From the IMG/VR virus record IMGVR_UViG_2582580966_000018: 18,422 nucleotides of DNA; one strand, given 5' to 3'. Under the pieces are notes generated by a model. The model did not search any database, was not told the origin of the DNA, and saw nothing but the letters and a program-made list of their open reading frames with translations. Position 1 is the stretch's first letter. Each line of letters starts with the position of its first letter. The translations under genes were made by a program, and so were the position numbers. Positions 1 to 5,386 of the stretch are shown in pieces. This DNA comes from a virus. Taxonomy: Duplodnaviria; Heunggongvirae; Uroviricota; Caudoviricetes.

Positions 1-399
1 TCACTTCAGCGGGTAGTCATCAAACTCACCAGTCCGCGCGTCATTGATGATGTACGTCACCACCCCCTTCACTACGACTCGTTCCTCACAATCGTCGTCA
101 GTTATCCATGTCTTTTTATCAGCGTGGTCCAGTTCTTCCAGGTGCACCTTTGGCAGCAGCCTGAGACGCAACAGCCGTATCTGGTCATTCAGATGACAAA
201 TCACCAGGCTTCCGTCTACCGGAGTCAGCGATGTGTCCATGACCAGCAGAGCACCTCTCTTGATTCCTTCCCGCCATGATGTAGCAGCGTAACGGATGAA
301 GAATGTCGCCGCTGGTTTTCGTATCAACTCCTTGTCGAGTGAGATCGCATCCTCGTGGTAATCAGCAGCAGGGCTGGGAAACTGTGACATGGCAACCAT
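1..399 (-). CDS. UmuD'-like protein (S24 LexA/UmuD peptidase fold), 132 aa
   Basis: Translation aligns by eye with E. coli UmuD from the FPSPAADY motif onward; the Ser of the catalytic dyad is conserved (TSW vs GDSM). GAGG Shine-Dalgarno 6 nt upstream of ATG at 399. Window starts at its stop codon, so any downstream umuC-like partner is outside the window. Confidence 0.6.
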   Translation of the reverse strand: MVAMSQFPSPAADYHEDAISLDKELIRKPAATFFIRYAATSWREGIKRGALLVMDTSLTPVDGSLVICHLNDQIRLLRLRLLPKVHLEELDHADKKTWITDDDCEERVVVKGVVTYIINDARTGEFDDYPLK

Positions 400-414
400 A
401 ACTCACCTCATTGG

Positions 415-434
415 CACTGTATGTACATACAGTA
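415..434. promoter_or_regulatory. LexA (SOS) box, CTGT-N8-ACAG palindrome
   Basis: Sequence cACTGTATGTACATACAGTa; the 18-bp core 416-433 is a perfect palindrome matching the LexA operator consensus, 16-35 nt upstream of the UmuD'-like start codon. Confidence 0.65.
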
Positions 435-444
435 CCAATGCATG

Positions 445-488
445 GATTTTGATCGTTGCAACCGATCGATTTGAAGATTTTGATCGTT
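445..488. repeat. Two perfect 13-bp direct repeats (GATTTTGATCGTT) 31 bp apart, with three GATC sites (451, 464, 482)
   Basis: Read directly: repeat copies at 445-457 and 476-488, and a CGATCG palindrome between them at 463-468. Lies in the AT-rich divergent intergenic region upstream of the 579..1865 gene. Confidence 0.8.
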
Positions 489-578
489 ATTTCCCATAAC
501 CAAATAGTGAGCAATTTTGGGACATTTATTATAAATTTAAATTGTCTTTAAATATAAATATCCAATCGGTAAATCATC

Positions 579-1865
579 GTGAAAAATAATTCCGCGCTGT
601 TTGTTGGTTCTTTTTTTGAAAGTGACCAAAGCTCAAAAGTAAACCTGGCATTATCTTATGATGGAGAACGATTCGAAAAAATAAAGGCTCAATTCCTTTG
701 GGCTATTGGTGGAACTGGAGAAGTTTTAGGGAGAGACCCATCAATTATTTATCACAACGGTTGGTGGTTAATAGCCGTATCAGGATATACAGAAAACGTT
801 TATGACGTCGATTGCTGGCGCTCACGTGATTTAACCGTGTGGGAACTGGTACGAATTAAGCTTGGCGATACGCCAGTCTGTGGGAAACGATTACCGGGTT
901 CAGATCTGGTGACCACTGACGTGTGGGCTCCTGAATGGTTTGTTGATGACGAAAATCTGTTCCTGATAGTCAGCCTGCGTTATTACAACGATCAGACTGA
1001 CAGTAAAGGTGTAAATGTCAAAAGTTTTAAAACATTCTATTCTGTCTGTTCTGATGTTGAGAGACTGGAGTTTTACGATCCGGTTGCGGTAAATATCGAA
1101 CCAAAAAACATGATTGATTCTGTTTTTTCCAGAATATTCCAGACGTATTACCTGACAATAAAAGATGAAATCACCAAAAAAATTGAGGTGTATTGTTCAA
1201 ATTGTTTCTCAGGACAGTTCACGAAATTATCAGTAATTCCGTTTACTCAGGCGGCGGAAGGCCCGGCGCTGGTTTATTTGCCGGACGGCACGATCAGAAT
1301 CTATGCGGATTTTTTCGACACAAAAAAATGGACTTATTTTGTAGACACGAAAGACTTCGTGACGTTCACGCCAGAGCGCCCCGTTTTGTTTGACGGCAGA
1401 ATTAAGCGCGGGACTATTACAAATGTGCTGAACTGGCGCGATAGTGAAACCGCATTGCAGCAACTGTCGGCGCTGTTCTGTGCAAACTCCGGGGATTTAC
1501 AGCCAGGGAAAATCCACAAGCTCATTGATGTAGCGGGAACGAGCAATATCAACGCTACTGATTTAATCTGGTGGCCTGAAACTGGACATTGTTATTTCAC
1601 CGAGGGGTTATCCGGTAACGTGACAATCAATGCGCTGCCAACTGTTTACCCGGACGGGAGTTCGTTTTATCTGATGGTCCGAAGCGCAACGCCGGGAGCT
1701 GGTGATCTGACGCTTAAACAGGCTGTCGGCGACCTGTACCACCCGGCTAATGGCATGGCGATATTTGATGCTGATTTGGTAGTGGCGGCTGGCGGGAACG
1801 CCGCATCACGTCTGTTTAGAATGGTGTGCTTTGATGGCCAGTTGTGGGTTGAGGGGGTTTTCTGA
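579..1865 (+). CDS. Hypothetical protein, 428 aa; unknown function, AT-rich cargo gene
   Basis: Long uninterrupted ORF. Only possible start is GTG at 579 (in-frame stop at 570-572 just upstream) and there is no clear Shine-Dalgarno. No motif I can assign; the many aromatic/Gly/Asp residues hint at a beta-rich, possibly carbohydrate-active fold, but that is a guess. Confidence 0.55.
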   Translation: MKNNSALFVGSFFESDQSSKVNLALSYDGERFEKIKAQFLWAIGGTGEVLGRDPSIIYHNGWWLIAVSGYTENVYDVDCWRSRDLTVWELVRIKLGDTPVCGKRLPGSDLVTTDVWAPEWFVDDENLFLIVSLRYYNDQTDSKGVNVKSFKTFYSVCSDVERLEFYDPVAVNIEPKNMIDSVFSRIFQTYYLTIKDEITKKIEVYCSNCFSGQFTKLSVIPFTQAAEGPALVYLPDGTIRIYADFFDTKKWTYFVDTKDFVTFTPERPVLFDGRIKRGTITNVLNWRDSETALQQLSALFCANSGDLQPGKIHKLIDVAGTSNINATDLIWWPETGHCYFTEGLSGNVTINALPTVYPDGSSFYLMVRSATPGAGDLTLKQAVGDLYHPANGMAIFDADLVVAAGGNAASRLFRMVCFDGQLWVEGVF

Positions 1866-1899
1866 TATAATTGTGGCTCAATGAAAATTGGGCCACATA

Positions 1900-2961
1900 A
1901 TGAACAATAAAATATTTTCCGTCCAGTATCTTCGTGGAATAGCAGCGCTACTTGTGGTGCTGTACCATTTTTCTTTTTTTACTCCGCGCTGGTTTGCTAA
2001 TTTATTTGCAAATGGCATGGTGGGCGTTGATATTTTTTTCATTATCTCTGGATTTATTATTTATTGGTCAACAATAAATCCTGAGGAATGCAGACCAACG
2101 GTATTTATTGTTAAACGATTCGCCAGAATATACCCGCTATTTTTTGTTGTGTTACTGGTTTCGTTGTTATTGCAACCTGCGCCTGCCACACAATTATCCA
2201 GGGGTTTTCTGGTTCTGCACAACGATTACACACTACCCGCTCCGGCGTTTGGATTTAATCTGCTACCGCCCGCGTGGACATTGACTTATGAAATATCGTT
2301 CTACGCTATTTTCTGTATGTGCGCTGCAATAACGACCCGGTATCGAGGTTCATTGTGTATCGCGCTGCTGATTGCAATCCCGGCAGTGCTACAGGTTGCG
2401 TTTAATGGAGGGTTGTCGTTTAACAGCACAGTCACCGCTATCCCTCCTGCTGACTCGCCGTTTTATGGTCTAATCAGGCTGGCAGGCTCAACGATGTTTT
2501 ATGAGTTTGCGTTTGGGATTATGTCTGGAATGATATTTGAAAGGTTTAAATTAATTCTTCCTAACTTAACTGCTATTACTATAGCAATATTCGCATCGGC
2601 TTTATTTTTCTATTTTTTCTTCACATTCTCAGACCATACCAGCGGTATAGAAGGAATGTTCTTTTTTGCTGCAATATTTTTTGTGGGCGTTTTGATGCTG
2701 GATAAATCAAAGGCGGGAGAGATAAAAGCATTATCAATTCTTGGCGACCTGACATATAGCATTTATCTCTGTCATTGGCTGGTAATGCAGATGGTACAGA
2801 AATTTATTCCGATTGGGGAGTATAAGCACTGGGGCGTCCTTGTCCCCTGCATGCTTGTTGCTTCTCTGATGATGGCATTCGCAGCTAACCGGATAATTGA
2901 AAAACCGTTTATCCGTCTGGCCCGTTCGGCGCTGAAACGCCAGGAGATTACGACGCGGTAG
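1900..2961 (+). CDS. Acyltransferase family 3 integral membrane protein (O-antigen/polysaccharide O-acetyltransferase-like)
   Basis: Strongly hydrophobic multi-helix protein with the N-terminal pattern typical of acyltransferase-3 / Oac-like enzymes (LRGIAALLVVLYHF...GVDIFFIISGF). ATG at 1900 preferred over the track's TTG at 1888. Sits 23 bp after the previous gene, suggesting co-transcription. Confidence 0.7.
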   Translation: MNNKIFSVQYLRGIAALLVVLYHFSFFTPRWFANLFANGMVGVDIFFIISGFIIYWSTINPEECRPTVFIVKRFARIYPLFFVVLLVSLLLQPAPATQLSRGFLVLHNDYTLPAPAFGFNLLPPAWTLTYEISFYAIFCMCAAITTRYRGSLCIALLIAIPAVLQVAFNGGLSFNSTVTAIPPADSPFYGLIRLAGSTMFYEFAFGIMSGMIFERFKLILPNLTAITIAIFASALFFYFFFTFSDHTSGIEGMFFFAAIFFVGVLMLDKSKAGEIKALSILGDLTYSIYLCHWLVMQMVQKFIPIGEYKHWGVLVPCMLVASLMMAFAANRIIEKPFIRLARSALKRQEITTR

Positions 2962-3412
2962 CAGGACGTGGCGGCCATTCAAGGCTGTCACTTAATATCG
3001 CTGCTTCATCATTAAACTTCATTTTCTTCAAGGCATCGATATGAGCAAGCCACTCTTTAAAGGTCGCCTTCTCTTCATCGGTGATGATCTCCAGAATGAG
3101 CTTAGAAGGCCAGTGTTCGCTGCTTATATATGCGTTAGCCGCAGAGATTAACGCATCTCTCTTTGACTCGGCCTGTGCCAGTTTAAGCGCGAACAGTTCT
3201 TCTTTAGTTGGCTCGGGAATTTTTTCCCACGCAGGCATGCCGTCTGGCCCTGCAACCCTTCGCATGCCGTCTTTAACTGTTGGGTAAAATTCGGCGAAAA
3301 CACCCATATCAACCGGCACAGCATCACTGTATTCGTCCGTCTTTAACAGAGAGCTTTCCTTGAAAACAAAAGCGTTGCTTTTGGCACTATATAAAAAATC
3401 TGAATCAGACAT
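2948..3412 (-). CDS. tfa: Tail fibre assembly protein (Tfa family chaperone)
   Basis: C-terminal TDEEKA...W...EWPPRP pattern and N-terminal region resemble lambda Tfa / TfaE. Start codon overlaps the stop of the upstream tail-fibre fragment (TAATG). Converges on and overlaps the acyltransferase 3' end by 14 bp. Confidence 0.75.
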   Translation of the reverse strand: MSDSDFLYSAKSNAFVFKESSLLKTDEYSDAVPVDMGVFAEFYPTVKDGMRRVAGPDGMPAWEKIPEPTKEELFALKLAQAESKRDALISAANAYISSEHWPSKLILEIITDEEKATFKEWLAHIDALKKMKFNDEAAILSDSLEWPPRPATAS

Positions 3413-3847
3413 TACGCTCTCCCGATAGCAATCCAGTTAAAAACTGTTGGCTGCGCAGTAAAGTTGTGGTCGGACGAACTCCAGGTTGCAGAACGAACAT
3501 TAAAGCTCCCTGCGTTAACCTTTTCGGCACCATACACGGTTAAGAGTTGATAGATACCGCCGGAGGCTGTCCATCCAGAGACATGGCCTTCTACTGCAAA
3601 TACCTGGTATGAGCTCATCGCCACACCCATATTCACATTATAAAATCCGTTACTGTCCGTTGTACCTACATCCATCTGGATGATCATATTGCCAGGAAGG
3701 CGAATAACCACACCAGACCCGGTTGTTGTATAGGTAAAGGATGACATATCCGGAACTTGCCCGGTAGCCGGTATAAATCACACACTCTCCGACATACACA
3801 TCATCCGGATGGGCAAACAGCTCTTGTTTGTCTGTGAGCTCTGCCAT
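3412..3847 (-). pseudogene. Side tail fibre C-terminal fragment, frameshifted near 3772-3780
   Basis: Two overlapping minus-strand ORFs (3650..3847 and 3412..3747) in different frames. Reading across the junction gives one continuous ~145-aa product (…YVGECV | IPATGQVPDMSSFTYTTTGSG…). GGAG 3 nt upstream of ATG at 3847. Positioned directly upstream of tfa, as a tail-fibre distal domain would be. Confidence 0.45.
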
Positions 3848-4204
3848 TGTTGGCTCCGTTTATCCGTTAAAAGGGATATCAGTTAAGTTATCCCGTGCAG
3901 GGTATAAGCCATTGTCGAGACCACTCATTGAATGGCCTCTGCAATAACCGATGTCTTTCCATCAGTCCGCCACAACAAAGAATCTTTTTTGCCATAAGGC
4001 AGGAGGTTCATCTTTCAGTGGCTGCCAGTGTTATTTCCCCACTTACTGGCTTGGGTTGTTTCGTGGTACTGCCGTAACTGGTTGCCAAGAATAAATTCCG
4101 GTTTCATTATCAAGCCCACCCGTAGATGGGCTTTGTAATGGATAGCCGTTGCTCAGTTCTCGTAATGCTTTGATTTTTCCGATAACGCAGTTTTGCGTTT
4201 GCCA

Positions 4205-4726
4205 TCAGCACGCGATATCGAGAGTCAACTGCAGTTGCTCGCGCCAGTACTCAACATTTGCTTCAATAACCGGCTTATCCCATCGCCAGCGAGCCATCTC
4301 TCTTGCCCCATTGCTGGCTTTTGATTTCCGGTCATCGCGAATGCGACATGCTTGCTCATATTTCTGCTGCTCAGTCAGTTCACCGCGAAGCAGACTATCA
4401 ATGTGCAGGTCGCACCACACAGCAAAACGAGCATCACACCAACGGGCAAATGCAACTGAAAGTTTTGGATGTAGCCACGTACCACCACCCCTGTCCTTTC
4501 GTGCCTTGCTGGTTTTTACATACCTCGATTGTGAGGGATGTAAAATTTGAGATTCTTTCCCGGTCAACGCTTCGTCTAAAGCACGAACGTATTCAAGCGT
4601 TTCTGCCAAACGCATCCAGTTATCAATGCGTTTTCCAAATCTCTCAGCAACACCTGTGACGTTGATCCAACCATCAGTGTTGAAACTGACAATTTCACCT
4701 TTGTAATTAAGTGGCACGATATTCAT
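4205..4726 (-). CDS. KilA-N domain protein, 173 aa
   Basis: N-terminal region (…FNTDGWINVTGVAERFGKRIDNWMRLAETLEYVRAL…) fits the KilA-N DNA-binding domain pattern. Separated from Rz by tandem terminators, so likely its own transcription unit. Confidence 0.55.
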   Translation of the reverse strand: MNIVPLNYKGEIVSFNTDGWINVTGVAERFGKRIDNWMRLAETLEYVRALDEALTGKESQILHPSQSRYVKTSKARKDRGGGTWLHPKLSVAFARWCDARFAVWCDLHIDSLLRGELTEQQKYEQACRIRDDRKSKASNGAREMARWRWDKPVIEANVEYWREQLQLTLDIAC

Positions 4727-4841
4727 AACGTTTACCTACCATTTGAAATGAACCTTTGCCGCATAGGAAACCAGCCCACCGAGGCTCGCCAGCACTAACT
4801 GGTATCCTCAAAGGCCCATTCCAAAGGGGCAGGTTCGGTGT

Positions 4842-4866
4842 AAAAAACATGCGTTGCGGTACGCAT
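4842..4866 (-). terminator. Intrinsic terminator-like hairpin (second of tandem pair after Rz)
   Basis: Minus strand reads ATGCGT-accgca-ACGCAT followed by TTTTTT. Confidence 0.5.
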
Positions 4867-4870
4867 TTAT

Positions 4871-4896
4871 TGCAAAAAGCCCCGCATCGCGAGGCT
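4871..4896 (-). terminator. Intrinsic terminator downstream of Rz/Rz1
   Basis: Minus strand reads GCCTCGC-gat-GCGGGGC (7-bp stem with one G-U pair) followed by TTTTT. Confidence 0.6.
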
Positions 4897-4927
4897 CATT
4901 AAATTGACTTTGTGATTTGCAAAAAAA

Positions 4928-5386
4928 TTATTTCAGGCATTGCGTCCTGATGTATTCCTGCAGGTAGTTAACCTGCGCGGTTATCTTGTCGATTCCACTT
5001 CGGAGACGGTAATAATTGAGTTCAGCATCTGCTGTAAGTCTTGGGCTTTCTCCATCGCCCATGCTGCTGGCTCCGGTCGTTGACTTTGCACAGGTGGCGG
5101 CGACTTGCAGGCGCTTACGACCAGCAGAAACATCAGCACGGAGACTTTCGATAGTCGCGTTAGCATCAGCAAGCTCCTTTGTATATCTGGCATCGAGTTC
5201 TGCTACATCACGTTGACGCTTCCGCATGTCAGCGATGGTGGCGTTCGCCTTCTCCAGTTCACTGGCCTTGTTATCGCGCTGCTCTTTGTAGGCGATTGCG
5301 TTATCACGGTAATGATTGACCGCCCACGACAGGCAGACGATGATGCAGATAACCAGAGCGGAGATAATCGCGGTTAACCGACTCAT
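4928..5386 (-). CDS. Rz: Rz i-spanin (inner-membrane spanin subunit)
   Basis: From the internal ATG ([30 protein letters not shown]…) the product closely resembles lambda Rz: N-terminal TM anchor then coiled-coil periplasmic domain. The longer ORF-track extension is rejected. Confidence 0.85.
4981..5166 (-). CDS. Rz1: Rz1 o-spanin lipoprotein, embedded in the +1 frame of Rz
   Basis: [27 protein letters not shown]… has a lipoprotein signal with Cys and a proline-rich mature part, nested inside Rz as in lambda. Confidence 0.7.

Follow-up and report, generated by a model that had tools for sequence, protein, structure and literature searches.

Locus and prophage context

The window, by which we mean the whole 18,422-nt stretch of DNA analyzed, begins on its left with a humD-family coding sequence of 132 amino acids (aa) that occupies positions 1 to 399 on the minus strand, with its TGA stop at 1-3 and its ATG start at 397-399, as delimited from the list of open reading frames (ORFs) and the family models. 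The product begins MVAMSQFPSPAADY, and an alternative ATG at 388-390 (Met4) is the start picked by some gene callers, which yields 129 aa. A Shine-Dalgarno sequence, GAGGTG (404-409, minus strand), is visible by inspection 4 nt ahead of the ATG, and a GAGGTGA element also precedes the start in P1 and in the Phytobacter allele. Between this gene and a divergent plus-strand gene for a 428-aa GH43-like tail-type protein lies an intergenic control region (400-578) containing a predicted LexA (SOS) box, TACTGTATGTACATACAGTG, at 415-434 on the minus strand. A 79-aa "truncated" call for the gene in one related sequence (L029) was rejected as a gene-caller artefact; the ORF is intact there and differs by one synonymous change.

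The window carries a defective prophage of mosaic make-up, with its junction at about 3772-3840. The left module (positions 1-3772) contains the humD-family gene and genes for the 428-aa protein, for an acyltransferase, for a protein of tail-fibre assembly and for a truncated C-terminal piece of a tail fibre; myovirus-type prophages at the dacD site end in a module 99.4-99.97% identical to it. From about 3840 rightwards the DNA is lambda/434-like, with KilA-N, Rz, lysozyme, the nin region, O/P, 434-type immunity and bet/exo. Between the lysis cassette and the truncated 111-aa tail-fibre C-terminus (3412-3747), genes for heads or tails were absent. An assembly chimera of a lambdoid and a myovirus prophage was considered and rejected, because several independent assemblies of E. 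coli, one of them a complete chromosome, carry this arrangement with 100% identity, so that it is real. Within the left module, the 428-aa protein (579-1865, plus strand) shows weak GH43/GH32 beta-propeller similarity below the Pfam cutoffs together with a PHROG "tail protein" match, and the next gene (1888-2961, plus strand) encodes an Acyl_transf_3 family acyltransferase. A search of 5,426 complete RefSeq E. coli genomes found neither, and the pair is possibly a surface-polysaccharide-modifying or lysogenic-conversion module.

The left edge of the window coincides with the stop codon of the humD-family gene, and the flank was taken from other assemblies. Over the 13,747 nt available for comparison, two contigs (L028 and L030) match the window at 100% identity, as does a complete 4.84-Mb chromosome (L027) over 6.1 kb; in all three, a 343-nt spacer comes after the gene, and dacD, sbmC, yeeA and yeeX come next. 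Because these identical sequences run into dacD-sbmC-yeeA, we place the gene as the last one in a defective E. coli prophage of lambdoid type. The same neighbours recur in eight more contigs that carry the exact protein on other prophage backbones. The first-pass annotation, made from the window alone, had allowed for a partner gene just outside it, but the flank offers only the spacer and host genes: umuC was absent beside the gene in these three flanks, in the eight further contigs and in all other homologue loci examined, where the neighbour is host DNA, an integrase or a partition gene.

At its 3' end, over the last 66 nt (1-66, minus strand), the gene adjoins the attachment site, and nowhere else does its DNA exceed 85% identity to other dacD-site prophages. 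By megablast, positions 1-66 alone matched HK140, HK544, mEp234 and 242 of the 5,426 complete RefSeq E. coli genomes, at 84-92% identity; in the E. coli copies that we inspected, dacD is about 320-345 nt away. A putative attP annotated in HK140 overlaps the 3' end of its gene, and the att region may likewise overlap or abut the humD 3' end here. Megablast of positions 1-600 and 400-5200 against the same 5,426 genomes returned only these last 66 nt and the lambdoid part, and a scan of species-representative genomes gave no useful match; the full gene was recovered in other assemblies by exact-protein look-up. Stx-phage records carry, at the record ends, only the C-terminal 83 codons of a HumD-type gene.

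A predicted LexA operator upstream of the gene

The 20-mer at 415-434 lies 16-35 nt upstream of the ATG, matches the LexA-box consensus at 17 of 20 positions and contains the palindromic core CTGTATGTACATACAG (417-432). This core is the single occurrence of CTGT-N8-ACAG in the 18.4-kb window (chance expectation 0.24), and the stricter pattern TACTGTATnnnnATACAGT appeared in 0 of 200 shuffles, which confirms the box that had been noticed by eye at this distance from the gene and makes it the sole such site in the window. At position 415, on the gene-proximal flank, the window reads ...CAGTG where the L003 allele reads ...CAGTA, a box with 18 of 20 consensus matches.

Equivalent boxes were located 10-46 nt upstream of the humD homologues of P1, N15, phiKO2, HK639, Aeromonas phage pAEv1818, Hafnia phage yong1 and the Phytobacter allele, with a box-to-start spacing of about 16-17 nt in the window, about 20-21 nt in P1 and 16 nt in N15. 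The records of P1 and phiKO2 also carry annotated LexA sites ahead of the gene, 20 nt upstream of humD in P1, and HumD has been described as LexA-regulated (PMC9603915). A variant arrangement is seen at the HK140, P0013, P0012 and P0014 loci, where the box stands ~20 nt upstream of a 79-aa ORF that abuts humD and is translationally coupled to it. This uncharacterised ORF, which lacked a Pfam match, occurs between the LexA box and humD in HK140 and in several E. coli, Phytobacter and Salmonella prophages (2756-2995 in L002; 3762-4001 in L019, L020 and L025), and the overlap of its stop with the humD start suggests a two-gene SOS operon.

A consensus scan of window positions 1-700 returned no sigma-70 promoter, and by eye only weak -35/-10 candidates were seen, overlapping the LexA box; the humD promoter presumably lies within 400-578.

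A UmuD'-like protein encoded without an N-terminal arm

Searches against protein structures placed the product with the processed form of UmuD. The best phmmer matches among PDB sequences were E. coli UmuD/UmuD' (8gmt, 1umu, 1i4v) at E about 3e-15, with F7 of the window protein at the second residue of UmuD', and profile comparison with UmuD by hhalign gave 99.7% probability, in agreement with the first-pass reading of the 132-aa product as a UmuD homologue. An AlphaFold2 model was confident over residues 31-100 and about 109-120 (pLDDT 85-91), with low confidence in the N-terminal 30 and last 12 residues, and its top PDB matches were UmuD' structures (1ay9, 1umu, 8gmt; target-normalised TM-score 0.77-0.80), followed by the C-terminal domains of LexA and lambda CI.

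The position of the N-terminus is well constrained. UmuD is cleaved between Cys24 and Gly25, and in the phmmer and hhalign alignments Q6-F7 of the window protein pair with G25-F26 of UmuD; with either start codon, the N-terminus falls 1-5 residues ahead of FPSPAADY, the opening motif of processed E. coli UmuD'. That the protein starts about where cleavage would leave UmuD', as proposed from the sequence at first, therefore stands. A TGA in frame at 403-405, two codons upstream of the ATG at 397-399, makes it impossible that a missed upstream start adds an N-terminal arm, and the normal N-terminal extension that would have undone the initial reading is thereby excluded.

Family models then separated the protein from UmuD proper and from LexA. 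With the equivalog model NCBIfam NF051876 ("HumD family translesion DNA polymerase"), it scored 171.1 bits against a cutoff of 120 in an alignment that spans profile positions 3-128 of 129, whereas the NCBIfam UmuD model NF007621 gave 78.5 bits, below its cutoff of 110, and TIGR00498 (lexA) gave 17.3 bits, far below its cutoff of 110.95. PHROGs assigned it to PHROG 811 (UmuD-like protein), and tblastn against phage genomes matched P1/P7 HumD at 55% identity over 95% of its length, as well as D6, N15 gp26, phiKO2 gp23, HK140 gp28, HK639 and others. The gene shows the HumD traits of a missing N-terminal arm, a stand-alone position, a LexA-box sequence upstream and a C-terminal extension of the form ND(A/M)xxxEFDDxPxx. 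It departs from UmuD proper in lacking the arm, in having Leu77 for Lys97 and in lying upstream of dacD rather than umuC, with a Ser at or beside position 60, and it departs from LexA/CI-type repressors in being an S24-like domain alone, free of an N-terminal DNA-binding domain. On these sequence grounds the gene is an unremarkable representative of a known family, HumD. NCBI/UniRef already record the exact 132-aa sequence, as "S24 family peptidase [Escherichia coli]" and as "HumD family translesion DNA polymerase", and the kind of gene is itself already known: the class was described in 1999 (P1 HumD), it has a curated model, and automatic annotation names it.

Replacement of the general-base lysine

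Every alignment that we made (phmmer, MAFFT, L-INS-i and hhalign) set Leu77 against UmuD Lys97 and Arg78 against Lys98, while UmuD Ser60 fell on Ser41 in three of the four (phmmer, L-INS-i, hhalign) and on Thr40 in the four-sequence MAFFT alignment, so that the serine assignment is uncertain by one residue. The early by-eye alignment had kept the catalytic Ser and put Leu/Arg at the Lys position; its second half holds throughout, and its first half holds in three alignments of four, to within that one residue. Judged by the Leu in place of the general-base Lys, the protein is a non-peptidase homologue of the S24 fold, despite a match to Pfam Peptidase_S24 (PF00717) at 27.7 bits against a cutoff of 23.3.

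That above-cutoff match, together with a Ser at or beside the nucleophile position, is what would commend the protein as an active, self-cleaving S24 protease or as a fragment of a LexA/CI-type repressor. We find either hardly credible: the general-base position is Leu, both a cleavage-site segment and an N-terminal domain are missing, and the LexA model reaches 17 bits where 111 are needed. The wider family points the same way. An exhaustive search gave 2,067 matches at E<=0.001, which were reduced to 50%-identity representatives, and among these both the Ser and the Lys are kept at the dyad columns in only 2 of 29 short-form sequences, compared to 40 of 54 long, arm-bearing ones. These counts make the Lys-to-Leu change in the window one case of a general decay of the dyad in short forms, which would no longer need to cut themselves.

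Comparison with P1 HumD and other known systems

The closest characterized relative is P1 HumD (McLenigan et al. 1999, J Bacteriol 181:7005; GenBank AAQ14073), which shares 55% identity with the window protein, is of similar length (129 versus 132 aa), starts at the equivalent of the UmuD cleavage site, has its LexA box about 20 nt upstream, is monocistronic with no umuC and ends in an NDARxGEFDD tail. The two differ at the dyad, in that P1 HumD has Lys at the UmuD Lys97 position (IKR) where the window protein has Leu77, and, at the position aligned with Ser60, His (directly preceded by a Ser) where the window protein has Ser41. They differ also in setting, P1 being a plasmid prophage in which humD adjoins phd-doc, while the window gene ends an integrated prophage beside dacD. 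According to its annotation in the P1 record, humD complements E. coli UmuD' functionally. In the 1999 work by McLenigan et al., P1 HumD is reported to have complemented UmuD' functions in mutagenesis and to have bound UmuC and RecA; to our knowledge, functional substitution for UmuD' is established for P1 HumD only.

The UmuD-like proteins of N15 (gp26), phiKO2 (gp23), HK140 (gp28) and HK639 likewise belong to the HumD family, at 49-54% identity and with a LexA box upstream, and their genes are placed comparably, between the tail-fibre genes and att/int or par genes; all four, in contrast to the window protein, keep Lys at the UmuD Lys97 position. HK140 is particularly close at the 3' end, where the last 66 nt are 92% identical in DNA and the C-terminal DDYPLK is the same, but it differs in the extra 79-aa ORF between LexA box and gene and in having a dinI neighbour.

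With E. coli UmuD' (1UMU, 1AY9) the window protein shares the fold, 34-36% identity, the N-terminal FPSPAADY segment and the logic of LexA-controlled expression. UmuD', however, arises by RecA-mediated self-cleavage of a 139-aa precursor with an intact Ser60-Lys97 dyad, encoded in an operon with umuC, whereas the window protein is made already short, has Leu for Lys97, lacks an adjacent umuC and carries an extra acidic C-terminal tail of 12 residues. The plasmid and ICE homologues MucA, RumA, ImpA and SamA are also S24-fold accessory subunits of SOS mutagenesis systems borne on mobile elements (PMC7092418), but they are full-length and cleavable, with N-terminal arms and a UmuC homologue of their own in the operon, and the window protein has none of these three features.

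Selection on the gene and its C-terminal tail

Sequence divergence indicates strong purifying selection on the gene. In comparison with the allele of Phytobacter ursingii, pS was 0.57 and pN 0.08, giving a dN/dS of about 0.08, and in all more distant pairs synonymous sites were saturated with pN at 0.12-0.38, so that pN lay far below pS in every pair. This constraint bears on whether the gene could be the remnant of a umuDC operon, that is, a 5'-truncated umuD pseudogene left by a rearrangement in which the polymerase gene was lost. The missing catalytic Lys and the place of the gene at the edge of a defective, rearranged prophage would fit such an origin, yet we judge it very improbable given the low pN and dN/dS, the gene's own Shine-Dalgarno sequence and start codon, a LexA box placed as in P1, N15 and others, intact orthologues of 128-132 aa in Escherichia, Phytobacter, Kluyvera and Salmonella, and a family distinct enough to have its own curated model.

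The most conserved block of the HumD family is its C-terminal tail, NDARTGEFDDYPLK in the window protein (residues 119-132; positions 4-45, minus strand), a segment that UmuD lacks and that the AlphaFold2 model leaves unstructured. Residues N119, D120, A121, G124, E125, F126, D127 and D128 were invariant across 17 sequences, and the strict tail motif was found in 6 of 49 short-form representatives, with looser variants in several more tails, and in 0 of 74 long forms. As this block is absent from UmuD', HumD proteins may do something that UmuD' does not. Some HumD relatives terminate in ...EFDDTPF. The C-terminal tip of SSB is DFDDDIPF, and the acidic-aromatic HumD-type tail (EFDDxP plus hydrophobic residues) bears a loose resemblance to it. 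A docking role, in which the tail would tether host UmuC or RecA* to SSB-binding replication or repair proteins, or would mimic SSB or DinI, is an unlikely suggestion; if true, it would amount to a previously unrecognised prophage handle on host translesion synthesis or on SOS timing.

The tail also enters into a broader alternative, namely that the main role of the protein is to modulate the RecA filament or the SOS response rather than to serve as a polymerase subunit. It would bind RecA* or host UmuD/UmuD' by means of its acidic C-terminus and thereby tune the cleavage of LexA or of a prophage repressor, recombination, or the activity of host pol V. An invariant block that UmuD lacks would suit this role, as would the constant absence of a cognate umuC next to the gene and the neighbourhood of HumD-type genes and dinI in HK140 and phiKO2, DinI being a RecA-filament binder. 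Weighing against it are the complementation of UmuD' in mutagenesis and the UmuC binding that are reported for P1 HumD, and the good conservation of both the UmuD' core fold and the N-terminal FPSPAADY segment, and we consider it rather unlikely as the main function. The two roles are nonetheless compatible and not mutually exclusive.

A probable stand-alone UmuD' for the host polymerase

The observations above directly support the ORF, the operator as a sequence, membership of the HumD family, the fold, the lack of both arm and Lys, the absence of an adjacent umuC, and purifying selection. We think it probable, by analogy with P1 HumD, that the gene supplies a phage-borne, genetically pre-truncated UmuD' as a stand-alone "moron" (an accessory gene transcribed independently) whose product pairs with host UmuC after SOS induction. 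This is close to how the first-pass annotation had read the locus, as a pre-activated, non-cleaving UmuD' mimic under SOS control, and that reading agrees with the description of P1 HumD, with the 171 bits against NF051876 and with the 55% identity between the two proteins. HumD has been characterized as an already activated, shorter version of UmuD (PMC7092418).

Under the proposed mechanism, host LexA would sit on the operator at 415-434 in undamaged cells and keep the gene off; upon DNA damage, RecA would be activated, LexA would cleave itself and the gene would be expressed. The product would have the UmuD' beta-fold but neither an arm nor a working Ser-Lys dyad, so that RecA-mediated self-cleavage would not be needed. 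Like P1 HumD, it would most likely dimerise and associate with RecA and with host UmuC, itself an SOS-induced protein, in a translesion polymerase resembling pol V. The slow activation of UmuD to UmuD' would thus be skipped, and the polymerase could be available earlier than by way of the host's own UmuD. LexA binding, dimerisation, pairing with UmuC and an effect on mutagenesis are the steps that we infer from P1 HumD and pol V biology.

Several findings count against this explanation. The window protein is only 55% identical to the single HumD that has been studied experimentally and has Leu77 where that protein has Lys, no consensus sigma-70 promoter was found beside the operator, the best-conserved block of the family is a tail missing from UmuD', and humD of P1 is dispensable for lytic growth (PMC10695390).

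Beyond this locus, the findings are of modest general interest in three respects. SOS-controlled HumD morons stand at the ends of many unrelated temperate phages, the short forms as a group have largely lost the Ser-Lys dyad, and they have a highly conserved C-terminal tail in common.
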